In this document: positions 2,670 through 59,528 of the stretch, one piece after another
Layout of the letters: every line of letters starts with the position of its first letter
Numbering within the stretch: the first letter of the stretch is position 1
Assembly (NCBI GenBank): GCA_049324715.1
Contig: JBMOMR010000049.1
Location: 8,026-72,025 of the forward strand
DNA: 64,000 nt
From: Chloroflexota bacterium
GTDB taxonomy: Bacteria; Chloroflexota; Anaerolineae; Anaerolineales; Villigracilaceae
Direction of reading: 5' to 3'
Notes under the pieces: generated by a model
Seen by the model: the letters and a program-made list of their open reading frames with translations, nothing else
Databases searched by the model: none
What the model was told of the DNA's origin: nothing
Made by a program: the position numbers and the translations under genes

Positions 2670-3950
2670 ATGAAAGCGCGCAACATTTTTCTCTTCATCA
2701 CCCTGATCGCTTCGCTCGTGCTTTCCTCCTGCGGGGGAATTCCCCAGGCCAGCGGGAACATCTCGTTCATGGTCTTCGGCGACCCCGCCGAACTCGCCGC
2801 CTACCAAACTTTGGTGGACGCCTTCCACGCGAAACATCCCGAAATCAAAGTGGAATTGATCCACATCCCCGGGCAATCGGACTACCGCAAACGCCTCGCC
2901 GCGGACCTGACAGCGAGTACGCCCGCCGATGTGGTACTCATCAACTATCGGCGTTACGCGCCCTTCGCCGCGCTGGGTGCGCTGACCCCGCTGGATTCGT
3001 ACTTCAACAATTCCGAATTGATTGCGAAGGAGGATTTCTACTCCGAATCGTTCGACCCCTTCATCTACGAGGGACAGTTGATGTGCATCCCGCAGAACCT
3101 TTCTAGCCTGGTCGTCTACTACAACAAGGAACTCTTCGATCAGGCGGGCGTCGCCTACCCGTCCGCAGATTGGACGTGGGACGACTTCCTCGCCACCGCG
3201 CAGGCGTTGACCCAAGACACGAACGGCGATGGGACGACCGACCAATTCGGCGTCGGCATCGAAGCCTCGCTCATCCGCTTCGCACCATTCGTCTGGCAGG
3301 CGGGCGGCGATCTCGTGGACGATGAAACCAATCCCACCATGTTGATGCTCGACACTGACGAAGCCTTCGACGCCATTGATTTCTTCGTCAGCCTGCAGAC
3401 CATCCACCACGTGGTACCCAACGCAGAAGAGGAAACCGCGCAGGATAGCGAAAGCCGCTTCATCAATGGTACAACGGCGATGTTCTTCAACAGCCGCCGC
3501 GGCGTGCCCACCTACCGCGAGTCCGCTGTCTTCGATTGGGACGTGGCCGCCCTGCCGCAAGGCGAGACCAAAGCGGGCATCCTCCATGCGGACGGCTACT
3601 GCCTGCCGAGTGCCTCGAAGAACAAGGACGCCGCCTGGGTCTTCATTGAATTCGCAAACTCCGCCGAGGGCCAGACCATCGTCGCCGCGTCGGGACGAAC
3701 TGTCCCTTCGTTGAAAGCGGTCGCCAACTCGCCCGCCTTCCTCGACCCGAAGTCCCGACCCGCCAACAGCCGCGTCTTCCTCGACACCATCCCGTTCATG
3801 CGCGCCCTGCCCGTCCACGCGAACTGGGCCGAGATCGAAGACGCCGCGGGCGAGGAAATCTGGCGCGCTTTCTATGGTGAGGCCGATCCATATGAAGCCC
3901 TGATTCGCGCCGTGGAACGCTCGCGCGAGATTTTCGCGCTTACTCAATGA
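2670..3950 (+). CDS. Carbohydrate ABC transporter substrate-binding lipoprotein (solute-binding family 1)
   Basis: Signal peptide with lipobox LSSCGG; family-1 SBP-like sequence; followed by two permease genes. Confidence 0.8.
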   Translation: MKARNIFLFITLIASLVLSSCGGIPQASGNISFMVFGDPAELAAYQTLVDAFHAKHPEIKVELIHIPGQSDYRKRLAADLTASTPADVVLINYRRYAPFAALGALTPLDSYFNNSELIAKEDFYSESFDPFIYEGQLMCIPQNLSSLVVYYNKELFDQAGVAYPSADWTWDDFLATAQALTQDTNGDGTTDQFGVGIEASLIRFAPFVWQAGGDLVDDETNPTMLMLDTDEAFDAIDFFVSLQTIHHVVPNAEEETAQDSESRFINGTTAMFFNSRRGVPTYRESAVFDWDVAALPQGETKAGILHADGYCLPSASKNKDAAWVFIEFANSAEGQTIVAASGRTVPSLKAVANSPAFLDPKSRPANSRVFLDTIPFMRALPVHANWAEIEDAAGEEIWRAFYGEADPYEALIRAVERSREIFALTQ

Positions 3951-4033
3951 TATGAAAACGGGACGCGGAGAACGCGGATGGACGCGGATACACGCTGATT
4001 TTTCTTTTTTCTCCGCGTTTTCCGCTTAAATCC

Positions 4034-4936
4034 GTGCCCGTCCGCGTCCATTTTCTTCAAACCATCGTGAAATCCACCCGACGCCAATCCCTCGCCCTGC
4101 TCACCCCCTACCTGCTGGGAGCATTCCTGCTCGTTGCCCTCCCAGCAGGCATTTCCTTCGCGCTGGCATTTCATCGTTACAACGGCATCACCCCGCCCGT
4201 CTTCAACGGTATTCAAAATTTCCAATATCTGCGTCTCGAGCCGCTGGCCTGGGTGGCCATCATCAACTCCCTGCTCTACATCGTGCAGGCCGTCCCGCTT
4301 CGCATTCTCGCCGCGCTCGGGCTGGCTCTCCTCCTCAACCGTCCGCGCAAAGGAATCGGCGTCTATCGCGCCGCGGCCTACCTCCCCACCGTCATCCCCG
4401 ACGCCGCCTACGCCCTCACCTGGACGTGGATTCTCAACCCCATTTACGGGCCGCTCAACCTCGTCCTTGGCGCGCTCGGCCTGTCCACTCCCGCCTGGCT
4501 CGCGGATCAGGATTGGGCGTTGCGTGGACTCGTCCTGATGTCCCTGTTTCAGGTCGGCGAGGGATTCGTCATCCTGCTGGCGGGCCTCCGTCACATCCCG
4601 CGCGAATACTACGACGCCTCCCGCGTCGACGGCGCGAGCCGCGTCCAGCAATTTTTCCGAATCACCCTGCCCCTGCTCAGTCCGTGGCTCATCCTGCTCA
4701 GCATCCGCGACATTGCCCTCTCCTTCCAAAACACCTTCACCCCCGCCTACCTGATGACGCGCGGCGGTCCCTACTACGCCACTTTCTTCGCCCCGCTGAT
4801 GATCTACGAAGAGGCCCTCGACAACTTCCGCTTCGGGATTGGCTCGGCCATGATGCTGATCATCTTTGCCGTGACTTTGATCCTCTCCCTGCTGGCCTAT
4901 TTCGTGTTCGAGGAATCGGGATTGGATGCAGACTAA
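4034..4936 (+). CDS. Carbohydrate ABC transporter permease (MalF/UgpA-like)
   Basis: Six predicted TM helices; EAA-like loop GLRHIPREYYDASRVDGAS. Confidence 0.8.
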   Translation: MPVRVHFLQTIVKSTRRQSLALLTPYLLGAFLLVALPAGISFALAFHRYNGITPPVFNGIQNFQYLRLEPLAWVAIINSLLYIVQAVPLRILAALGLALLLNRPRKGIGVYRAAAYLPTVIPDAAYALTWTWILNPIYGPLNLVLGALGLSTPAWLADQDWALRGLVLMSLFQVGEGFVILLAGLRHIPREYYDASRVDGASRVQQFFRITLPLLSPWLILLSIRDIALSFQNTFTPAYLMTRGGPYYATFFAPLMIYEEALDNFRFGIGSAMMLIIFAVTLILSLLAYFVFEESGLDAD

Positions 4937-7451: not shown

Positions 7452-7964
7452 GTGTGGGATGATGGGAAGATGAAGCGGTTGCTGGTGGGAGTATTTGTAA
7501 TATTGGTTCTTCTGACGGTTACTGTAACAAGAATGGTAAAAATTAACGGGAAGGTGATATGGGTGAGTGCTTTCCCCGATAGAGGGTGGGTTATAAATGA
7601 GGAGGCGAGGGATATATTAGCAGAATTGGCGGGAGAGAGCGGTAATGAGGGGTGGGTGATCGTGTATTTGCCTGTGGCGTACAAAGAAACCAAGGTAGGC
7701 TACGGGCGGGGGGATGACCCGCCTTTGTACTATGCCGAGTGGAGCAGGTGGAGGCAGATCCCTGTTTTGCGAATTTATGTCAACTGGGGGCTGTGGCGGG
7801 AATATAGTGAGAGCAAACGGGATCAGGGACTGGCGGTAATAATTACAAAAGAGTTGCAGGAATTTTGGCAGGCAGGAGAAGTGGGGAAAACGGTGGAGAG
7901 GAAGGCGCTAAGCGGAGAGATCATGCCATGGGGACTGTGGGCGTGGGGGAGGGGAGATGAGTAG
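7452..7964 (+). CDS. Hypothetical membrane-anchored protein
   Basis: N-terminal TM helix; Trp/Tyr-rich; same island and strand as neighbours, with an 8-nt overlap onto the next gene. Confidence 0.45.
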   Translation: MWDDGKMKRLLVGVFVILVLLTVTVTRMVKINGKVIWVSAFPDRGWVINEEARDILAELAGESGNEGWVIVYLPVAYKETKVGYGRGDDPPLYYAEWSRWRQIPVLRIYVNWGLWREYSESKRDQGLAVIITKELQEFWQAGEVGKTVERKALSGEIMPWGLWAWGRGDE

Positions 7965-10078: not shown

Positions 10079-11584
10079 ATGAACAAACTTTCCCGTGTCA
10101 GCAAAAACTCGCTTATCGTCGCGGCGTTCTTTTTCCTCGACAAGATCCTGGCCTTCGTGCGGACGGGCATCATCTCGCGCCAGTATTCCGATGAAGTGCA
10201 CATGCTGGATACGTTCCACGCGGCCAACAACCTGCCCGACGTGCTGTTCGCGCTCATTTCTGGCGGCGCGCTGGCGATGGCATTCATCCCGCTCCTCACC
10301 GAATACCTGACTACCAAAGACCGCGCCGCCGCCTGGGACTTATTCTCGCGCGTCGCCAACGTGGCCTTCCTCATCACCGGTTCCATCGCCGTCATTATCG
10401 CCATCTTCGCCGAGCCGATCGTCAACGCGGAGATCGGCATCGCGCCAGGCTTCGGCACGGAGCAACGCGCCCTGCTGGCCGAACTCATGCGTCTCAACCT
10501 CATCGGCACGATCATCTTCTCCATCAGCGGCCTGGTGATGGCGAGTTTGCAGGCCAACCAGCATTTCGTCCTGCCCGCGCTCGCGCCCGCCATGTACAAC
10601 ATTGGTCAGATCATCGGCGCGATTTTCTTCGTCCCGCGCTGGGGCATTCACGGACTCGTCTACGGCGTCATCCTCGGCGCGGCCATGCACCTGCTCATCC
10701 AAATTCCCGCGCTCTTCAAATTCGGATTCAGATGGACTCCATCCCTCGACATCCGCCACACGGGACTGATCGAAGCCCTCAGCCTGATGGCGCCTCGTCT
10801 GTTGACGATGGGCGGGATCCAACTCATTGTGCTGGCGCGCGACAACCTCGCTTCGCGCCTCGACCAGGTAGGGGCTGTCACCGCCCTCACCTCTGGCTGG
10901 ATGATCATGCAAGTCCCTGAGACGATCCTCGGGACGGCCATCGCCACCGCCATGCTCCCCACCCTCTCCGAGTTCGCGGCGCGCGGGAATTGGACCGCGT
11001 TTCGCGACACGATCGAGCGCGCCCTGCGGGTTTTGATCGCGCTGACAATTCCCGTCGCGGCGGTGATGGCCGCGGGCATCCATCCCCTCGTCCGCGTCAT
11101 CTTCGGCTTCGACGAGGCCACCTCCACCTTGCTCACGTGGACGGCGCGCGCCTACCTTCTCACGTTGACGGGATACACCATCCACGAGGTGGCGGCGCGG
11201 TCGTTCTACGCGCGCAAAGAGCCGATGTTCCCGCTCTACGCGGTGTTAATCCGCCTGGTCATTTTCCTCGGCATCGGCATCGTCGGTGTGACGTTGTTCC
11301 GTGAGATTGGCGCGCCCGTCATTGCCTTCGCGGAGATCGCGTTGCTCATCGAGGCCATCATCCTGTTCAAGTGGCTCTCGAATCGGACGCATGAACCCAT
11401 CCACGTGGGTAGTTCGGTGGTGCGCGGGCTGGTGGCAGCGCTCGTTGGCGGCGTGACCGCCTACGGTCTCGCGTGGGGCGTGCCGGGCGGGGCAGTCGTC
11501 ACCGCGTTGTTGGGAATGTCCGTGGGCGGGATCGTCGCCCTCGCCATCGTCTGGAAGGACGTCCGCCTGCTGTTGCATTTGTGA
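10079..11584 (+). CDS. murJ: Lipid II flippase MurJ
   Basis: About 14 TM helices; the N-terminal SLIVAAFFFLDKILAFVRTGIISRQY and overall sequence are MurJ/MviN-like. Confidence 0.85.
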   Translation: MNKLSRVSKNSLIVAAFFFLDKILAFVRTGIISRQYSDEVHMLDTFHAANNLPDVLFALISGGALAMAFIPLLTEYLTTKDRAAAWDLFSRVANVAFLITGSIAVIIAIFAEPIVNAEIGIAPGFGTEQRALLAELMRLNLIGTIIFSISGLVMASLQANQHFVLPALAPAMYNIGQIIGAIFFVPRWGIHGLVYGVILGAAMHLLIQIPALFKFGFRWTPSLDIRHTGLIEALSLMAPRLLTMGGIQLIVLARDNLASRLDQVGAVTALTSGWMIMQVPETILGTAIATAMLPTLSEFAARGNWTAFRDTIERALRVLIALTIPVAAVMAAGIHPLVRVIFGFDEATSTLLTWTARAYLLTLTGYTIHEVAARSFYARKEPMFPLYAVLIRLVIFLGIGIVGVTLFREIGAPVIAFAEIALLIEAIILFKWLSNRTHEPIHVGSSVVRGLVAALVGGVTAYGLAWGVPGGAVVTALLGMSVGGIVALAIVWKDVRLLLHL

Positions 11585-24144: not shown

Positions 24145-24858
24145 ATGACCACTGGCCTGCCTCCCGCTCCCCAACATTTTACTCGGCTGAAAGCGCTCCT
24201 CGCCCGAATCCGCCACTTTGACGGAATCCCACCCGAGGTCCAGGAAAGAATCGCCGCGTCTGCATCCCCGCGTCACTTCGCGGCGGGACAGGTCATCTAC
24301 ATCGAAGGTGAACCCGCAGAGGCGCTTTACCTGCTGGAACGCGGCTGGGTGAAAGCCACGCGCATGTCACGCGACGGGCGCGAGCAGGCGATGTTGTTTC
24401 TCGAGTCGGGGGAAATCTTCGGCGATATCGCCGTGTTCAGCGGCACAACCTACCCTGGCACGGTGGTGGCGCTCGAAGACGTGGACGTGTGGACAATCCC
24501 CGCTGACAATTTTTTGGAGTTGACCAAACAATATCCCGCGCTGGCGATGGCGGTCATCCGTCACCTGAGCGGCCGCGTGCTGCACTACATCAGTCTGGTC
24601 GAAGACCTGTCCCTGCGAAATGTGGAGGCGCGGCTAGCGAACACGCTATTACAGCACGCCGAAGCGCGCGAAGGACAATTGATCGTCCCCCGCCGTGACT
24701 GGACAACGTTCGATGAAATGGCCGTGCGACTCGGGACGGTGCGCGATGTGTTGAGCCGCGGGCTGAAGACGCTCGAAGCGGATGGATTGCTCAAGGTGGA
24801 GAAGCAGGCTATCGTCCTGCTCGACCCGAAAGGTCTGGCGGAACGCGGCAAATTGTGA
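24145..24858 (+). CDS. Crp/Fnr family transcriptional regulator
   Basis: cNMP-binding domain (GEIFGDIAVFSG) plus HTH (TFDEMAVRLGTVRDVLSRGLKTL). Confidence 0.8.
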   Translation: MTTGLPPAPQHFTRLKALLARIRHFDGIPPEVQERIAASASPRHFAAGQVIYIEGEPAEALYLLERGWVKATRMSRDGREQAMLFLESGEIFGDIAVFSGTTYPGTVVALEDVDVWTIPADNFLELTKQYPALAMAVIRHLSGRVLHYISLVEDLSLRNVEARLANTLLQHAEAREGQLIVPRRDWTTFDEMAVRLGTVRDVLSRGLKTLEADGLLKVEKQAIVLLDPKGLAERGKL

Positions 24859-27117: not shown

Positions 27118-27726
27118 ATGGCACCAATCAAAGACATCATCTTCCTGCTCTTGACGGGCGGCCTCGCCGCCTACCTCTGCTGGTATTTTTGGCAGAGGTA
27201 CAATTTGCACAAGGCACTGCACAACATCTACTATCTGATGGGGTTTGCAGTGCTTTTGGTTTCGGGACTGCTGTTGATCTTCCTCGGCCTCGACATCCTT
27301 GCTTCGCCCTACGTGCTGACCGTGGCCAGCCTGATCCCGCTCGGCATCTCGATGGGACTGGCTGAGGAGTACTTCCCCGCCTGGAAGAAGTATTTCAAGT
27401 GGTTCGCGTTGATCGGCTTCCTCGCCATCGCGGTGACCAGCATCGGCGGGATGGACTCGCTGAAGAAGATCGCCGTTCCGCTCTTCCACGGCGTGGCGGG
27501 ACTCGTGATCTTCCTCGGACCGTTCCTGGCGAAGGGCGCGCCGAAGGGCTTCTACTGGGTCGGAATCGGCGGCGTGCTGATCGGCCTCGGCGGCATTGCG
27601 CTGGCCTTCATTTCGGTCGGCGCGCAGTTGCTGTTCTTCAGCCCTGAGTTCGTCATGCTGATCCTCACCCCACTCCTGTTCCTGATGGCGGGCGCGTTCA
27701 CGCTCGGTTTCACCCGCAAAGGGTAA
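27118..27726 (+). CDS. Polytopic membrane protein, paralog family C (C1)
   Basis: RBS AAAAAGGAGAATGCACAA precedes the ATG; paralogous to the 31370 gene (GGVLIGLGGIALAF vs GGALIGIGGLALSF). Confidence 0.6.
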   Translation: MAPIKDIIFLLLTGGLAAYLCWYFWQRYNLHKALHNIYYLMGFAVLLVSGLLLIFLGLDILASPYVLTVASLIPLGISMGLAEEYFPAWKKYFKWFALIGFLAIAVTSIGGMDSLKKIAVPLFHGVAGLVIFLGPFLAKGAPKGFYWVGIGGVLIGLGGIALAFISVGAQLLFFSPEFVMLILTPLLFLMAGAFTLGFTRKG

Positions 27727-27736
27727 TTCAAAACCT

Positions 27737-27823
27737 GTACACGGATTACACGGACACAATAGAGTTACACGGATTTATAAAAACAATCCGTGTAACTCCG
27801 TCAAATCCGCGTAATCCGTGTAC
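27737..27823. repeat. Symmetric array of six TACACGGATT half-sites forming an imperfect palindrome of about 88 nt
   Basis: Two forward half-sites (TACACGGATTACACGGAC), then the perfect inverted pair TTACACGGATT-N9-AATCCGTGTAA, then two reverse half-sites (AATCCGCGTAATCCGTGTAC). Confidence 0.6.
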
Positions 27824-27921
27824 CGCTCTTCCCGCAATCATTTGTCTTTTGTCAAAGACAGCCAGCCCGATTTGTGATATTTTTCAGCAGACTGACAACA
27901 ATCCATTTAGGAGTACATCCT

Positions 27922-29457
27922 ATGCAATTTGTCAAAGACCGTTTCGATTATCTCTTCCGTTCCACGCGCGGGCTGACCTTGGTCGCCATTGCGGTGGTTT
28001 CCATCATTACCGCCATTTTCGGAACGCTTTCTGGCCCAATGGTGGAGTGGGGCATCAAAGACATCACCGTGCGCGTGCTCGGTTTGAAACTGGTCGAGGC
28101 AGACCGTGAGGGACGCATCATCATGCTCTACCACACGATCGCCATGACCATCACCGCCATCGAAGTCTATTTCATGACCGAGATTCTGCCGATGAAACGT
28201 CACGAACAGACGATCATCAACGGGACGATCACTGTCGGGTACCTGACAGCAGCCATCTTCGGCCTGCTCTTTGCCTACTGGGGACACAACTTCATCTTCC
28301 ACGGGCTGTTTCTGGTCGGACAGTCGTTGGTTTTCTTCGCGGGTATTTTGCTGACTGTGGCACTCAACCCCTGGAAGAAAGAATACCGACTGGATAAAGA
28401 CTCGCCTCATGCCCGTTCCAAGGGCGGCATGGACCTGGAACGCCTGGCGTTCTTCGTCATGGCGATTGCCATGTTGGTCTCTGCCACCTTCGGCGCTGTG
28501 ACAGGCTCATTCTGGGGCAACGGTCACGAGACCTTCCTCGGCGAAGACCTGATTCGTATGCCACATAAGACCGAGTTACAGAAAGCCATCATCGGCCACC
28601 TGCACATTATGCTCACCCTGCTGGCTGTGGGCATCACGCTCATCGTGGGACGCTGGGTCAAATTCAAGGGCGTCCTGCAAAAGATCGCCATGCCGCTGAT
28701 GGTCATCGGTATCATCGGCACCACCGCAGGAGCGCTCTCGGTGGTCTGGTTGGAATGGGCGCATACCATCATCTATGTCGGCTCGACCTTCATCATGCTG
28801 TCGGCGTTGATGTACGTCATTTATTCCTGGGACATGCTCATCAAGGAAGGCACGGCGGGTATTCAGAAGCCGAACTTCTTCCAGAAGATTGGCGCGTTGC
28901 TGCGTGACCCGCTCAAGTTCGGGCCTGGCTGGCAAATGGTCTTCATGAACTTTACGGTCAGCGGCGTGGGCATTTTCATGGCGGTCAAACTGGAGGAGAT
29001 CTTCCGCGTCTGGCCCCACCGCGAGGAACGCATCACCCTGACGGGACACTGGCACATCCTCTCGGGGCTGATCGCCACTATCATCCTGATGTACTTCGCC
29101 GACCTCTCGGGCTTGAAAGGCAAAGTCCGCAAGTGGTTCGGCTGGGCCATTATCCTCCTCTCCGACGTTGCCTTCGGCTCCGCCACCGTTTTCTCGATGA
29201 AGCGCCTCTTTGTGGACGAGATCAACCAGCAGGGCATCGTCAACACCACCATGCTCCTCATGGATCTGGGGTTGGGCATCCTTCTCGTTGCATTGGCGAT
29301 CTTCATGATCTGGAGGTTATACGACTTGCTCCAAAAGAAAGGCCACTGGTCCATGGAATATGCGGCGGAGCGCAAGACCAACGCCGAGGCGGAACTCGCG
29401 GAACAGAAACGCAAAGCCGAGGAACTCAACGCCATTTTGAAGGAGGTGTCGAAATGA
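27922..29457 (+). CDS. Large polytopic (about 12 TM) membrane protein with a C-terminal coiled coil; function unknown
   Basis: RBS AGGAG; 12 hydrophobic segments; C-terminal EAELAEQKRKAEELNAILKE; ATGA-coupled to the downstream FGE-like lipoprotein. Confidence 0.6.
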   Translation: MQFVKDRFDYLFRSTRGLTLVAIAVVSIITAIFGTLSGPMVEWGIKDITVRVLGLKLVEADREGRIIMLYHTIAMTITAIEVYFMTEILPMKRHEQTIINGTITVGYLTAAIFGLLFAYWGHNFIFHGLFLVGQSLVFFAGILLTVALNPWKKEYRLDKDSPHARSKGGMDLERLAFFVMAIAMLVSATFGAVTGSFWGNGHETFLGEDLIRMPHKTELQKAIIGHLHIMLTLLAVGITLIVGRWVKFKGVLQKIAMPLMVIGIIGTTAGALSVVWLEWAHTIIYVGSTFIMLSALMYVIYSWDMLIKEGTAGIQKPNFFQKIGALLRDPLKFGPGWQMVFMNFTVSGVGIFMAVKLEEIFRVWPHREERITLTGHWHILSGLIATIILMYFADLSGLKGKVRKWFGWAIILLSDVAFGSATVFSMKRLFVDEINQQGIVNTTMLLMDLGLGILLVALAIFMIWRLYDLLQKKGHWSMEYAAERKTNAEAELAEQKRKAEELNAILKEVSK

Positions 29458-54119: not shown

Positions 54120-55133
54120 TTAACGTTCCGAGAGGGCGATGAAGATATCCTCGAGCACGGGCGGGATGGGACGAAGTTCGTGGAGAGTTGCGCCTGCCTG
54201 GTCGATTTCCTTGGTCAGGCGGGCGATCACGTCGCTGGCTGTGTTCTCTTTGACGCGCACGTGGAGTTTGTCGCCGAAGGCCGCCACGTCTTCCACATCC
54301 GCGTCCTGGTGTGCGACGTGTCGCAGGGTGTTGATGGGATCGCCGCGCAACTGGAGGACGCGTCCGTTGAGGCGGGCGCGGAGATTCGAGGGGGTGTCTT
54401 CGGCGATGATTTGTCCAGCCTTCATGAAGCCAACGCGGTGACAACGCGAGGCTTCGTCCATGTAGGGAGTGGAGATGATGACGGAGACAGAGGGAGATTG
54501 GTGATCAGAGATCGGAGATTGGCGATTGGTTATTGACGTGTCTACGTGTGTACCCGGCTGCGAAACGAGTTTGATGACGAGTTGCCAGAAGTCCTGCCGC
54601 GTGACGGGATCGACACCCGTGGTGGGTTCATCGAGAAGGAGCAGGCGCGGACGCGTGACAAGGGCGGAGGCGAGACCGAGTTTTTGCTTCATCCCGCCCG
54701 AAAGTTGACCCGCGCGGCGATCCTTGAAATCGGCCAGACCGACGAAGTCGAGAATCTCCATGCAGCGCGGGAGCCACTCGTCCGACTTCAGTCCGCGCAC
54801 CTCGGCAAAGAAGCGGATGTTCTCCAGCACGGTCAGGTCTTCGTACATCGAGAAACGCTGCGAGAGATAACCGATCTGCGAACGCGCCTGTTCCACTTGC
54901 TTGAGGATGTTGTAACCGCAGACTTGGATCTCACCCGCGTCGGGCAACAACGCACCGACGAGCAGACGCATGGTGGTGGTCTTCCCCGCGCCGTCCGAGC
55001 CGACGAGCCCATAAATTTCGCCTGGGGCAATATTCAGACTCACGCCGTCAACGGCACGGTTGTTGCCGAAGGATTTTTTGAGGTTGGTTGCTTGAACGAG
55101 GGTATCGGTCATTGTGATCCTGTCGAAAGTCAA
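54120..55133 (-). CDS. ABC transporter ATP-binding protein with an insertion of about 20 aa between Walker B and the H-loop
   Basis: Walker A GSDGAGKTT, signature LSGGMKQKL, Walker B LLLLDEPTTGVD; then the inserted PGTHVDTSITNRQSPISDHQSPS before TPYMDEA. Confidence 0.8.
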   Translation of the reverse strand: MTFDRITMTDTLVQATNLKKSFGNNRAVDGVSLNIAPGEIYGLVGSDGAGKTTTMRLLVGALLPDAGEIQVCGYNILKQVEQARSQIGYLSQRFSMYEDLTVLENIRFFAEVRGLKSDEWLPRCMEILDFVGLADFKDRRAGQLSGGMKQKLGLASALVTRPRLLLLDEPTTGVDPVTRQDFWQLVIKLVSQPGTHVDTSITNRQSPISDHQSPSVSVIISTPYMDEASRCHRVGFMKAGQIIAEDTPSNLRARLNGRVLQLRGDPINTLRHVAHQDADVEDVAAFGDKLHVRVKENTASDVIARLTKEIDQAGATLHELRPIPPVLEDIFIALSER

Positions 55134-55245
55134 AGGTCGAAGGTCGTCGAAAGTCGGTCAAAGGTTAAAAGTCGAAGGTCGGTTAGGCTTCGTAGTCAGC
55201 GGAGTCGTCGGAGATGCGGCGAGGGTGAGGGTTGGATTCGAGATA

Positions 55246-55593
55246 TTAGATAAAGTTGGCGATTTGGCGGGCACAGGTTTCGGCGGTTGCGTAAGTGTCT
55301 TTGAATTGTTCTTCTGTGATGTACTTCAGGTCGAGAGCAACATAGAGCTGAGCGCGTACTTCGCCAGCAGAGGCACGTGCCATACCAAGGAAATTGATGA
55401 ACTGTACATCCGTGCGGCTTTCAAACCCTTCGGCGATATTGCTCATCACAGAGACACTTGCCCTGCGAATCTGGTCGCGTAGCCCAAAATCCTTGTTAAA
55501 ACCAATCAGGTTTGTATACGCATAAATCGAATTAATCAAATGACGTGCCGTCTTCCATGCCTCGATGTCTTCAAAACGAGAAATTACGGCCAT
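55246..55593 (-). CDS. Four-helix-bundle protein (23S rRNA intervening-sequence-type)
   Basis: The N-terminal FEDIEAWKTARHL…IAEGFESRTD…NFLGMARASAGEVRAQL is the TIGR02436 pattern; GC is below its neighbours. Confidence 0.7.
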   Translation of the reverse strand: MAVISRFEDIEAWKTARHLINSIYAYTNLIGFNKDFGLRDQIRRASVSVMSNIAEGFESRTDVQFINFLGMARASAGEVRAQLYVALDLKYITEEQFKDTYATAETCARQIANFI

Positions 55594-55644
55594 GATTTTT
55601 CATCTCCTTGGAAGTGTTTTTGACTTTGGACCTTCGACCTTTGA

Positions 55645-56106
55645 CTAATTCGGATGAACAATCACAACCGCCTCCTCCGCCGCCAGCCCTTCCAATTGCT
55701 CGCGGCTGGGACGGCGCGGAAGTCCATGCGCTTTCTCCATAATGAGTCCGATCATGTGCGGATGACGCTGGAGACGGACTTCGAGAAAATCGGCAAAGCG
55801 GCTCGGATCGGTGACCACTTCGGCCTGGCCTTCGAGGCGTTTCGCACCGACGCGGATTTCCACGCGTGGATCGGACTGGATGTTGCGGACCCAGTCTGCT
55901 TTCCGTCCGCGCGCCGCGCCGAGGTAGTAATCGTCGCCGATTTTTTCGTACTGTAAAGGCGTGACTCGCTTGAGGCCAGACTTGCGTCCCGTGGTCGTCA
56001 GAAGGAGGATGATCCTGCCGATGAGCGGTCCCAGCCCGAGGGCGTAGAGGACGCGATGGATCTTTTGGATGTGTTTCATTTTTGTCCAATCGAACGGGGG
56101 ACTCAT
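55645..56106 (-). CDS. Deazaflavin-dependent nitroreductase-family protein (DUF385/PNPOx-like)
   Basis: LLLLTTTGRKSGLKRVTPLQYEKIGDDYYLGAARGRKADWVRNIQSDPRVEIRVG follows the DUF385 pattern. Confidence 0.65.
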   Translation of the reverse strand: MSPPFDWTKMKHIQKIHRVLYALGLGPLIGRIILLLTTTGRKSGLKRVTPLQYEKIGDDYYLGAARGRKADWVRNIQSDPRVEIRVGAKRLEGQAEVVTDPSRFADFLEVRLQRHPHMIGLIMEKAHGLPRRPSREQLEGLAAEEAVVIVHPN

Positions 56107-56184
56107 GGTGTACTCCTTTCCACGAGGATGGTCACAGATCGAAAGTCAAAAGTCAAACCGACCTTCGACCTGTGACTTTTGACT

Positions 56185-57612
56185 TTATTGAAAAACAACA
56201 TCCGCGGGCATGCCGATCTTCAGCTGGCCTTCCGCGTCGGCGACGCTCAACTTGATGGCATAGACCGTCGAACTGCGCCCATCCACCGTCTGCACATTAC
56301 GCGGGGTGAACTCGGCCTTGTCGGAGATCTGGATCACGGTCGCGGTAAAGCTCGCCCCGGGGAACGAATCCACCGTAACTGTGGCCTGTTGTCCCAACGC
56401 GATCTGTCCGTAACGGTCTTCGGGGATGTAAACGGTAATGGTCAGGTTGCCAAGTTCACCAACAACAAAGGCGGTCGAGCCTGGTTGGAGAAAAACGCCA
56501 ACCTCCGCATTACGCGTCAACACGACGCCATCGATCGGCGCGGTGATGGTCAGTTTGGACATTTGCGTATCGATCAAGGCCAGGCTGGCTTCGGCCTGCT
56601 GGACCGCGCCTCCCGCCTGTCCCAGGGCGGCATTGGCCTGCTCCAGGGCGGCCGCGGCGATCTTGACCTGCGGGGAGTATTCGCCCGTCTGCAGGCGGGT
56701 CAACGTGTCGAACGCGACCTCGTAGCGTTCGCGTGCAACTGACAAAGCCGCGCGGGCGGTGAGCACAGCATCGGCGGCATCGGTATCCAGCAATTCATCA
56801 TAGGCTTTCTGCGCTTCGTCCAATTCGGACTCTGCCAGATCGAGAGAATCCTGGGCGGCCGTCACCACGTCGCTAACGCCGCTGAGACTTTTCGCGATCT
56901 CGATCTTCGTCCGATAGGTGGAAAAATGAGGCGGCATCTCAATGTCATCGGGGCTGACGGTTCCGCCCGTGACCTGCGAGCGGTCGTACACAGCTTTCGC
57001 GACCAGATACCCGACCCTCGCTTCCGCCAGACGGGTCTCCGCCTCCACAAAATCGGCGTTCTTCAAGTCACTGATGACGGCATCGAGATCGCTCTGGGTC
57101 TTGACCAGACTCTCGCTGGCGGCCTTCACTTCAGCCTGTGCGGCGGCAATCTGCTCGGCCTGCGAGAAATACCACAGAGGCTGGTCAAACTGCGAAGGGG
57201 CGCGATAGACCCAATCCGACAGGCGGGCGGATCCCTGCTGGGCCCGCGCGGAGACCAGCGCCGCGTCGTATTGCGCCTTCGCGAGGGACTGTGCGCTTTG
57301 CGCTGTCAGCAGGGCGTTTCGGGCAGATTCGACCTGGGCGGCCGCGACCGCGCGTTGGGCAGTCAGCAGGCTCGGGTCCAGACGAAGAAGCGGGTCGCCC
57401 TTCCGAACGGCCTGCCCCTCGTCGACGAGGATTTCCGTCACCCTGCCCGCGAGTTCAGGCGCGACGTTCACCTGGGTCGCTTCGATGGTGCCTGAGGCAG
57501 TGATCTGACCGTTATCCTGATTGAGAATTTGCGAGGCGACGAAGTAAACGCCGATGATGACCAGCACGGCAATGACAACAATGGCGGGAAGCGGCGGACG
57601 TTTGTGGTTCAT
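56185..57612 (-). CDS. HlyD-family periplasmic adaptor / secretion protein
   Basis: N-terminal TM helix, long coiled coil, C-terminal beta-barrel (QLKIGMPADVVF). Confidence 0.8.
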   Translation of the reverse strand: MNHKRPPLPAIVVIAVLVIIGVYFVASQILNQDNGQITASGTIEATQVNVAPELAGRVTEILVDEGQAVRKGDPLLRLDPSLLTAQRAVAAAQVESARNALLTAQSAQSLAKAQYDAALVSARAQQGSARLSDWVYRAPSQFDQPLWYFSQAEQIAAAQAEVKAASESLVKTQSDLDAVISDLKNADFVEAETRLAEARVGYLVAKAVYDRSQVTGGTVSPDDIEMPPHFSTYRTKIEIAKSLSGVSDVVTAAQDSLDLAESELDEAQKAYDELLDTDAADAVLTARAALSVARERYEVAFDTLTRLQTGEYSPQVKIAAAALEQANAALGQAGGAVQQAEASLALIDTQMSKLTITAPIDGVVLTRNAEVGVFLQPGSTAFVVGELGNLTITVYIPEDRYGQIALGQQATVTVDSFPGASFTATVIQISDKAEFTPRNVQTVDGRSSTVYAIKLSVADAEGQLKIGMPADVVFQ

Positions 57613-58816: not shown

Positions 58817-58910
58817 GGGGACTCCGTTGAAAAGGATGAATGCGGAAGGATGAAGGATGAATGTTCAATGCAGGCAGCTATAGACCGATGCGGTTTTCAT
58901 CCTTCATAAT

Positions 58911-59528
58911 TCATCCTTCATCCTTAAGAATGCCGTGCAGATAAATATCCATGTAAGTGTCTGCGGCGTCTTTTGGCATAAGTTTGCTGATCACGGAATT
59001 GGCTGTGACCATCTCCGTAACGAAATACGAGATGATCATGCCGAAGAATGAACGCAGAAACATGGCGGGGTTGTTGATTCGCAATCCCTTGCGGACTTTC
59101 AACATCTGCTCGAAGATGGGCAACACCTTCGGGGCGATCTCCTTGAACATGCTCGCGCCGTGTCTGCCGCTGAATTCCACCATCTCGATCATCATAAGCT
59201 TGATGTAAACAGGATTGTTGCCAAGTTCAGTCACCGTGATCTTGAATGCGTTCCGCAGGAACTCCTCGGCGGTTTCGCCGGGCGCTTCCATGACCAGCGG
59301 CAAAATGAGTCTGTAGGGATGCTTATCCACAACAATGGCTTCGAATATCTCTTCCTTACTGGCAAAGTGATTGTAGATTCCGCCCAGCGCCAGTCCCGCA
59401 CGTTCAGCGATCTGCCGCATGGACGTGGCGTGGTAGCCCTGCTCCATGAACAATTCGATCGCCGCGTCTTCGATGGCAAGGCGGGTGGTTTCACCTTTGG
59501 TGGGAGTGTCTTTCGGTTTGGGAGACAT
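58911..59528 (-). CDS. TetR/AcrR family transcriptional regulator
   Basis: The N-terminal HTH is RLAIEDAAIELFMEQGYHATSMRQIAERAGLALGGIYNHF. Confidence 0.85.
   Translation of the reverse strand: MSPKPKDTPTKGETTRLAIEDAAIELFMEQGYHATSMRQIAERAGLALGGIYNHFASKEEIFEAIVVDKHPYRLILPLVMEAPGETAEEFLRNAFKITVTELGNNPVYIKLMMIEMVEFSGRHGASMFKEIAPKVLPIFEQMLKVRKGLRINNPAMFLRSFFGMIISYFVTEMVTANSVISKLMPKDAADTYMDIYLHGILKDEG

Follow-up and report, generated by a model that had tools for sequence, protein, structure and literature searches.

Several described classes of short repeat bear comparison with an 87-nt imperfect hairpin located at positions 27737-27823 of a 64-kb stretch of Chloroflexota DNA (hereafter the window, i.e. 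the whole 64,000 nt analyzed), in the spacer between an open reading frame (ORF) termed C1 and the gene for a 511-aa membrane protein (12-TM, for 12 transmembrane segments). The Correia/NEMIS and ERIC elements, which are miniature inverted-repeat transposable elements (MITEs), are like this hairpin about 100 nt in length, with terminal inverted repeats, and form RNA hairpins in 3′ or intercistronic untranslated regions (UTRs); they can be cleaved by RNase III and are internally deleted derivatives of larger elements. The elements described here differ from MITEs in that their terminal repeats are tandem nonamers, neither a TA nor any other target duplication was seen and no DDE transposase partner was found. 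Of the features of a MITE derived from a DDE insertion sequence (IS), the inverted ends are present, but duplications, and transposases within or beside paired arrays, were not found.

Repetitive extragenic palindromic (REP) sequences are imperfect palindromes of 20-40 nt with a GTAG or CGTC tag at the foot (PMC3733652, PMC6006769). REP/REPIN elements and their REP-associated tyrosine transposases (RAYTs) share with the elements reported here a short, dispersed, extragenic and palindromic form, a location mostly 3′ of genes and between tandem or convergent ORFs, occasional clustering or tandem amplification, long hairpins with paired arms, one small nuclease-type gene flanked by the repeats, and superfamilies that span phyla (PMC3733652, PMC6006769). 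In contrast to REP sequences, the nonamer elements have no GTAG/CGTC tag, their arms are direct arrays of a 9-nt unit and not inverted REP palindromes, the whole 8-9-nt unit is conserved instead of a tetranucleotide alone, and the gene concerned is of the PD-(D/E)XK-fold GxxExxY type and not HUH-Y1.

Intervening sequences (IVSs) of 23S rRNA with an S23p/four-helix-bundle ORF, such as the Coxiella IVS, are likewise small selfish cassettes with a ~120-aa ORF in a stem-loop of terminal inverted repeats, subject to horizontal transfer and, in the rRNA case, excised at the RNA level by RNase III (PMC4990558). The window also has a four-helix-bundle gene between inverted tandem-unit arrays (55122-55646); the hairpin at 27737-27823 differs from the IVSs in lying in intergenic DNA and not in rRNA and in being ORF-less, and its full-length relatives carry GxxExxY genes. 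The TAACTGA heptamer repeats of Beggiatoaceae, Cyanobacteria and Bacteroidetes resemble the nonamers as short tandem intergenic units shared by distant phyla with no known transfer mechanism, often beside start codons as are the solo CACGGATT arrays of phage-like contigs (PMC4679880). Unit and unit length are different, TAACTGA repeats are nearly always direct, in contrast to the metagenome CACGGATT arrays, about half of which, among the matches listed, are inverted pairs, and no associated gene has been reported for TAACTGA (PMC4679880).

Set beside these systems, the hairpin at 27737-27823 is probably a gene-less miniature of a widespread class of elements with inverted (N)CACGGATT array ends, whose full form encloses a GxxExxY gene, and would act as a generic 3′ hairpin and not as an operator of the 12-TM gene. 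The class, linked to GxxExxY genes and REPIN-, MITE- or IVS-like in its properties, appears to be undescribed: literature searches for the hairpin sequence gave chance matches only and no paper containing it in the library searched, and no description was found of an association between GxxExxY genes and nonamer arrays.

Hairpin architecture and occurrence across phyla

The hairpin reads as three forward and three reverse nonamers of the TACACGGAT type, in the order G-TACACGGAT-TACACGGAC-acaatagag-TTACACGGATT-tataaaaac-AATCCGTGTAA-ctccgtcaa-ATCCGCGTA-ATCCGTGTA-C. This agrees with an earlier annotation made from the letters of the window (the sequence-only reading), which had described six half-sites in an imperfect palindrome of about 88 nt with a perfect pair around the central tataaaaac. 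Four of the six half-sites match TACACGGATT exactly, the central pair is perfect and one unit in each arm has decayed. The class is defined here by two or more tandem (N)CACGGATT units in one arm opposite their reverse complement in the other, and this hairpin has three units in each arm. The outer left arm (27737-27755) consists of G27737 and two tandem nonamers, TACACGGAT (27738-27746) and TACACGGAC (27747-27755), and pairs with the outer right arm (27805-27823), made up of ATCCGCGTA (27805-27813), ATCCGTGTA (27814-27822) and C27823; both outer arms are 100% conserved in the orthologous locus L110. Between them lie the degenerate left unit ACAATAGAG (27756-27764), third from the centre, which forms a bulge or internal loop and pairs on the minus strand through G.U only, the inner left stem TTACACGGATT (27765-27775), the loop TATAAAAAC (27776-27784), at which position related elements have a GxxExxY gene, the inner right stem AATCCGTGTAA (27785-27795), identified by sequence reading and repeat search, and the degenerate right unit CTCCGTCAA (27796-27804), identified by sequence reading and fold. 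The repeat search gave arms of 46 nt, 78% complementary and separated by 9 nt. Across the 64 kb, TACACGGATT at ≤1 mismatch has seven matches against 2.7 expected, five of them inside 27737-27823.

Folding of the RNA, a check that the sequence-only reading had proposed, gave a minimum free energy (MFE) of -48.6 kcal/mol for the plus strand and -61.7 kcal/mol for the minus strand, far beyond dinucleotide shuffles in both cases (z = -11.3 each). That reading had also considered a simple terminator less likely for want of a poly-U, which was borne out: the sequence directly 3′ of the stem is CCGCTCTTCCCGC, without a T-tract, so that the G+C-rich stem followed by a U-tract of an intrinsic terminator is not seen, and a terminator scan made no call. 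No sigma-70-like site was called in the spacer that holds the hairpin. Rfam at gathering threshold gave no match at the hairpins of the window and of 18 family loci, and at E-value threshold only sub-threshold matches to miRNA-precursor hairpins, taken as noise; a blastn search of plasmids with the element returned no match.

The inner stem was used for a scan (TTACACGGATT-N5-15-AATCCGTGTAA) of one genome per species in 185,579 species, giving 116 sites at 109 loci; the species concerned number 66 and represent at least 13 phyla, and ~0.4 loci would be expected by chance (596 Gb x 11 gap lengths / 4^22). The 66 genomes were from Bacteroidota (22), Acidobacteriota (15), Chloroflexota (11), Verrucomicrobiota (4), Planctomycetota (3) and Desulfobacterota (2), the remainder comprising one bin from each of seven further groups and two bins without classification. 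Copies per genome were most numerous in one Chthoniobacter metagenome-assembled genome (MAG) with 15 loci and one Chloroflexia MAG with nine. An artefact of binning or assembly is ruled out because some of the contigs exceed 1 Mb and one match is in the complete genome of Desulfonema magnum. The exact inner hairpin had no match in viral contigs.

All sites of the inner-stem scan show the same layout of forward units, loop and reverse units, and further (N)CACGGATT units follow outside the 11 nt that the search specified. A representative element reads CCACGGATT-NCACGGATT-ACACGGATT-loop-AATCCGTGT-AATCCGTGN-AATCCGTGG, with lineage-specific palindromic extensions outside the core. Using one site per genome, mirrored positions of the two arms pair far above permutation over the first ~13 nt outside the core, with a weaker signal as far as ~25 nt; at offset 7, for example, 40 of 64 sites form Watson-Crick pairs, against 18.7 +/- 3.6 after permutation, with four pair types represented. 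Such pairing above permutation, with several pair types, indicates that the arms stay complementary while their sequence drifts.

Family members are almost always intergenic, with the hairpin centre usually 30-90 nt from a stop codon. Crude ORF calls at 74 sites placed 23 between convergent, 44 between tandem and seven between divergent genes. An all-against-all blastp of 676 ORFs gave no recurrent neighbouring protein family, and the genes found between two nearby hairpins are housekeeping genes. In Bacteroidota, Acidobacteriota, Chloroflexota, Verrucomicrobiota and Planctomycetota, long perfect stems in 3′ UTRs recurrently derive from this class.

Some loci contain further repeats. A Chitinophagales MAG (L031, 3655-3997) has six tandem 62-65-nt copies of the inner hairpin and right arm; by its spacing this 62-nt array looks like a CRISPR array, an identity that was rejected, as one arm and the inner hairpin are reiterated without repeat-spacer units. 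Long tandem arrays of heptamers occur near CACGGATT hairpins in a Muribaculaceae MAG (TTTTGAC/TTATTAC, L036 7819-7999) and in Desulfonema magnum (CACAAAT/TCCAAAT, L087 ~7517-7560), both of which recall the short tandemly repeated repetitive (STRR) sequences of cyanobacteria.

GxxExxY genes between facing arrays

A search for facing forward and reverse arrays 250-5000 nt apart returned 11 pairs. One of these (L254) encloses a 137-aa ORF whose ATG lies within the last nonamer (CACGG-ATG-GG) and whose stop codon is 15 nt before ATCCGTGTAATCCGTGG; the ORF belongs to PF13366 PDDEXK_3 (E 1.9e-33) and to TIGR04256 'GxxExxY' (7.9e-35). An iterative search of all ORFs in 2.65 Mb found three GxxExxY ORFs (L254, L023 and L300), every one of them touching arrays. 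The L023 ORF, whose product shares 31% identity with that of L254, takes its stop codon (TAA) from an ATCCGTGTAA unit. Further GxxExxY genes were sampled by protein homology, independently of the repeat (L362, L371, L376 and L377/L379). In L362 (with Amuc_1100-domain neighbours), L371 and L376, CCACGGATTACACGGAT.. is 0-6 nt from the ATG and ..ATCCGTGNAATCCGTGG 9-12 nt past the stop codon. The arrays CACGGATTTCACGGATTTCACCGATT.. and AATCAGTGAAAATC(A/C)GTGTAATCAGTG border an Ignavibacteriaceae gene (L377/L379) whose product shares ~64% identity with the L023 protein; this gene, with its arrays, sits between cas4 and cas1 (L377-L381 1501-1872), an arrangement present in many samples. Altogether, inverted CAC(G/T)GATT arrays or full hairpins flank the GxxExxY gene in all seven loci examined (a biased sample, as weighed below), and in six of the seven the start or stop codon is within, or ≤15 nt from, the arrays. 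No transposase was found between or beside paired arrays.

The two forms of the element meet in L376, where arrays at 10492-10571, 47 nt downstream of a full element, enclose ~20 nt of the 5′ end of the ORF and ~16 nt of its 3′ end. This internally deleted copy directly connects the gene-bearing element with the gene-less hairpin as an intermediate form. In a phage contig (L132), an HNH endonuclease gene lies between such arrays.

PF13366 is listed as of 'function unknown' with 'multiple transfers' between divisions (PMC3424549). The GxxExxY/PF13366 family is very large, with many thousands of members, most of them on ~1-kb metagenome contigs, which we read as what would be expected of multicopy genes flanked by repeats.

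These arrangements suggest how the class may be built and maintained. In the full form, the arrays enclose a GxxExxY gene of ~125-140 aa (PF13366 PDDEXK_3, TIGR04256, PD-(D/E)XK nuclease fold) where the loop of the short form lies, and loss or absence of the gene would leave two facing arrays that fold into a hairpin of 50-110 nt. The nonamers may be recognized by the GxxExxY protein, a host factor being the less likely candidate, and the cassette copied to new sites by the putative nuclease activity of that protein, either by homing into empty arrays or by a transposition-like move; such recognition by GxxExxY proteins would explain why the same nonamer occurs across phyla. In the window, the hairpin would form part of the 3′ end of the upstream operon's transcript and serve as a generic stable 3′ stem, candidate roles being protection against 3′ exonucleases, cleavage by RNase III and insulation ahead of the 12-TM promoter, and the unrelated hairpins present in relatives would fill the same 3′ stem role.

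As a tentative extension, which we hold to be possible rather than probable, GxxExxY proteins could be the nucleases of undescribed, cross-phylum selfish cassettes ended by inverted CACGGATT arrays, the gene-less hairpins being miniatures or homing sites that hosts reuse as 3′ RNA stems and the four-helix-bundle cassettes a sister system. If the link holds, it would provide a concrete substrate (CACGGATT arrays) for a family of many thousands of proteins, explain the frequency of GxxExxY genes on ~1-kb metagenome contigs and set a counterpart based on PD-(D/E)XK proteins beside RAYT/REPIN and IVS/S23p.

A number of observations weigh against a GxxExxY-linked miniature that serves as a 3′ RNA stem. 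Neither the 64-kb window nor ~86 kb of related loci contains a GxxExxY gene, so that the link here is by sequence family, and the seven-locus sample is biased, three loci having been selected by the repeat and three homologues being 73-82% identical to one of those. No target-site duplication was recognizable at the elements and no clean empty site was found; as the palindrome runs on into the flanks (T-rich left, A-rich right), a short palindromic duplication would be hidden. A PDB sequence search with the GxxExxY profile returned no solved relative, and an AlphaFold2 model from a shallow GxxExxY alignment was too poor to use (mean predicted local distance difference test score, pLDDT, 49.6). 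At the RNA level, the window hairpin folds 13 kcal/mol better on the minus strand than in the sense orientation, and across 43 tandem-context sites the preference of the MFE for the sense strand is weak (26 vs 17, p = 0.085). The asymmetry of G.U against A.C relative to the direction of the flanking gene is also not significant (112 vs 110), and the strand tests therefore do not separate a role in RNA from one in DNA.

The last point against this reading concerns nonamers outside hairpins. Direct tandem CACGGATTNCACGGATT had at least 120 matches in viral contigs and at least 120 in metagenome contigs. Among the matches listed, 44 metagenome arrays had an inverted partner of two or more reverse units within 80 nt, 24 had a partner of one unit and 62 were solo, and the viral contigs (L122-L241) had mostly solo direct arrays (132, vs 25 in hairpins), which the picture of hairpins and cassettes leaves unexplained. 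The viral solo arrays occur in either orientation to the genes and often abut stop or start codons; some nonamer matches in viral contigs are coding and likely due to chance. A search of related loci confirmed no GxxExxY gene in viral contigs. In gut Bacteroidales, the arrays resemble 20-nt terminal inverted repeats around a variable core of 50-60 nt. Since the unit is conserved, and not the hairpin alone, it is plausible that the nonamers are recognition units of a protein, albeit one that would not regulate the neighbouring gene. In phage-like contigs (for example, L147 11502, L201 858 and L153 4715), the arrays often have a TTTT(A/G)AC lead-in and fill the whole gap from stop codon to ATG.

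The hairpin slot, the conserved box and rival explanations

Orthologous loci were obtained through relatives of the 511-aa protein. In L110 (94% protein identity), the same hairpin is found in the same place with four substitutions in 87 nt. The identity between window and L110 is 95.4% for the hairpin and 100% for 27824-27860, compared with 84-88% for the flanking ORFs and 73% for their third codon positions. Because the hairpin is 95.4% identical where third codon positions are 73% identical, the window copy is, on this comparison, under constraint or being homogenised and no decaying relic. In L116-L120 (93%, same gene order), the place is taken by an unrelated hairpin, AGACTTCGGAAGTCT..AGACTTCCGAAGTTT, followed by GGCTTTTGTT, with a T-rich tract after the hairpin of L116; the slot of L111 holds another unrelated hairpin (CCCCCAAATTCGAC..GTCGAATTTGGGGG), and L113, L115 and L121 have other stems again. 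In relatives with a 90-95% identical 12-TM protein, the nonamer array is either absent or replaced by an unrelated hairpin, and the spacers of all orthologous loci fold strongly (-22 to -50 kcal/mol). As far as these loci go, the hairpin slot 3′ of the upstream gene is conserved and its content interchangeable, and the spacer upstream of the 511-aa gene is an insertion hot spot.

What is shared by these spacers is a box (TTTGTCTTTTGTCAAAGACa, 27841-27860) outside the repeat element, 100% identical in L110, which holds a second palindrome, TGTCTTT-tgtc-AAAGACA (27843-27860). The sequence-only reading had placed this palindrome exactly, and it turns out to be the element conserved across orthologous loci: in all those examined, the box TTTG(T/A)C(T/A)TTT..(T/C)AAAGAC is found 81-84 nt (107 nt in L111) before the ATG, whatever hairpin precedes it. 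The conserved stretch extends over 27841-27886, comprising the box TTTGTCTTTTGTCAAAGAC(A) and TTTGTGATATTTTT, the box being followed by TTGTGATATTTTT in orthologous loci; within it, TGTGATATTTTTCAGC loosely resembles a CRP half-site. The box at 27841-27860 is probably a promoter or operator of the 12-TM gene. That the second palindrome, and not the nonamer array, accompanies the 12-TM gene argues against an operator role for the array, so that the six half-sites are a false lead for 12-TM regulation and regulation studies should start from the box. In one relative (L112, 2530-3996), a DDE_5 transposase gene directly precedes the 511-aa gene at a distance of 4 nt, and this locus lacks both C1 and the hairpin.

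The sequence-only reading had offered two explanations of the array, an operator with several sites, to be bound by a Crp paralogue or some other regulator, and a MITE/REP-like repeat. An operator or activator array, in which a regulator such as the product of the nearby Crp-like gene (24145-24858) binds the six nonamers and controls the 12-TM gene, would account for regularly repeated and symmetric units upstream of a conserved promoter-like box, where activators could sit, and for the strong conservation against L110; the solo direct arrays elsewhere also suggest that the unit itself is recognized. We nevertheless regard it as very unlikely, since relatives with a 90-95% identical 12-TM protein and the same promoter box lack the array or have unrelated hairpins, the array not being conserved with the promoter in L111, L113, L115 and L116-121, and the genes next to the same array are unrelated, without a recurring family, across 66 species from no fewer than 13 phyla. 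Family members are also depleted between divergent genes (7/74), the array contains neither a TGTGA-N6-TCACA-type site nor TGTGA/TTGAT-type half-sites, and its arms covary to keep pairing, which independently read half-sites would not need. The repeat interpretation holds in its essentials. The elements are dispersed, multi-copy and intergenic, with covarying arms and gene-bearing relatives, but target-site duplications were not seen and the partner is GxxExxY and not RAYT or DDE. Mobilization as a REP/REPIN by a RAYT (Y1 HUH transposase) or as a DDE-IS MITE, with the GxxExxY genes as passengers in loops, is accordingly unlikely in our assessment. It draws on REP-like behaviour (extragenic, downstream of genes, in tandem or convergent spacing, sometimes clustered or tandemly amplified; PMC3733652), on the 'atypical secondary structures' reported for RAYT subclasses of Bacteroidetes, Planctomycetes and Acidobacteria (PMC6006769) and on the gut Bacteroidales arrays, which look like terminal inverted repeats around a variable core. 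Against this, neither foot has a GTAG or CGTC tag, the arms are tandem nonamers without REP palindromes, and paired arrays come without a transposase and without a visible target-site duplication. No ORF with an HUH...Y motif was found among the 676 ORFs (~0.78 Mb) next to hairpins, a weak test as RAYTs are single-copy and whole genomes were not searched. Moreover, one gene family recurs inside the arrays, and in 6/7 loci its start or stop codon is within the arrays or ≤15 nt away, a regularity that random passengers would not show.

Two further explanations take the host as their starting point. The nonamer could be the binding unit of a conserved host factor (nucleoid, replication or RNA-binding), with GxxExxY genes merely preferring such sites; this would suit a conserved unit that different phyla have in common, whether in hairpins, in solo arrays or in phage-like contigs and in either orientation to the genes, and a window copy under constraint without a GxxExxY gene nearby. 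We also count in its favour the apparent likeness of UACACGGAU to the CsrA SELEX (systematic evolution of ligands by exponential enrichment) consensus, RUACARGGAUGU; the GGA, however, would be buried in a long stem. No candidate factor common to all these phyla was identified, by-eye comparison gave no match to a DnaA box, parS, CRP site or sigma-54 consensus, and the distribution is patchy (exact core in 66/185,579 species), more in keeping with a selfish element than with a site used by hosts universally, so that this explanation seems to us quite improbable. DnaA box, parS, CRP site, sigma-54 promoter, attC and CRISPR repeat were all rejected as identities of the unit on by-eye comparison. 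An ordinary terminator or 3′ stabilizer hairpin that evolved locally and is unrelated to elements elsewhere has on its side the position 11 nt past a stop codon and the strong hairpin that every relative has in the slot, one of them (L116) followed by a T-rich tract. Yet the window hairpin has no U-tract and no terminator call, and an identical nonamer architecture in 66 species is not attainable locally by chance, which makes this the most improbable of the explanations considered. As an origin it is contradicted by the cross-species scan, and it survives as a host-level role only, one that is compatible with the preferred reading of a gene-less miniature reused as a 3′ stem.

Related arrays and neighbouring genes in the window

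The hairpin begins 11 nt past the stop codon TAA (27724-27726) of the upstream ORF and ends ~100 nt before the ATG at 27922; its intergenic location within tens of nt of a stop codon is the position typical of the family. The upstream ORF C1 (27049-27726, plus strand) has no Pfam match and its orthologues are called as 201-229 aa. The gene for the 511-aa 12-TM protein (27922-29457, plus strand) also has no Pfam match and is highly conserved among Chloroflexota of the Anaerolineales type. An exact-protein look-up gave no record of its product; the search that supplied the relatives included a 100% identical entry from an Anaerolineales-like Chloroflexota MAG (locus tag ACOYZ6_09815).

A second, degenerate member of the CACGGATT repeat class is located at 3961-4049, with ACGCGGAT-type units (ACGCGGAG/ACGCGGATG/ACGCGGATA/CACGCTGATT) facing TCCGCG..AATCCGTG..TCCGCGTCC. 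It has an MFE of -46.1 kcal/mol (z -5.6), begins, like the first, 11 nt past a stop codon (that of ORF 2670-3950) and has units that resemble the Chitinophagales variant GGAACGCGGATGACGCAGATT. The element at 27737-27823 is therefore not the sole copy of its class in the window.

The window also contains a parallel to the gene-bearing form with another gene and another unit. A TIGR02436 four-helix-bundle gene (55246-55599, minus strand, E 2.8e-30; 23S rRNA IVS protein/Avd-like family) is flanked by inverted tandem arrays of the 7-mers AAAGTCR/AAGGTCG (55122-55646), in which the arms at 55128-55145 and 55629-55646 are 100% complementary over 18 nt. At a distance of 0.5 kb from this gene, a gene-less hairpin of the same AAAGTCR/AAGGTCG unit (AAAGTCAAAAGTCA-17 nt-TGACTTTTGACTTT) is found at 56142-56186, and L016 has another four-helix-bundle gene between inverted GATGGTTA arrays. 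To judge by these arrangements, a small ORF in the loop of inverted tandem-unit arrays, with ORF-less miniatures nearby, looks like a general design. A further hairpin lies between two minus-strand ORFs at 58832-58925, with tandem-unit (AAGGATGA) arms AAGGATGAATGCGGAAGGATGAAGGATGAAT ... ATTCATCCTTCATAATTCATCCTTCATCCTT that are 34-41 nt apart; it may represent a third unit type of the same tandem-unit-array design and shares GGATGA with some CACGGATGA units.

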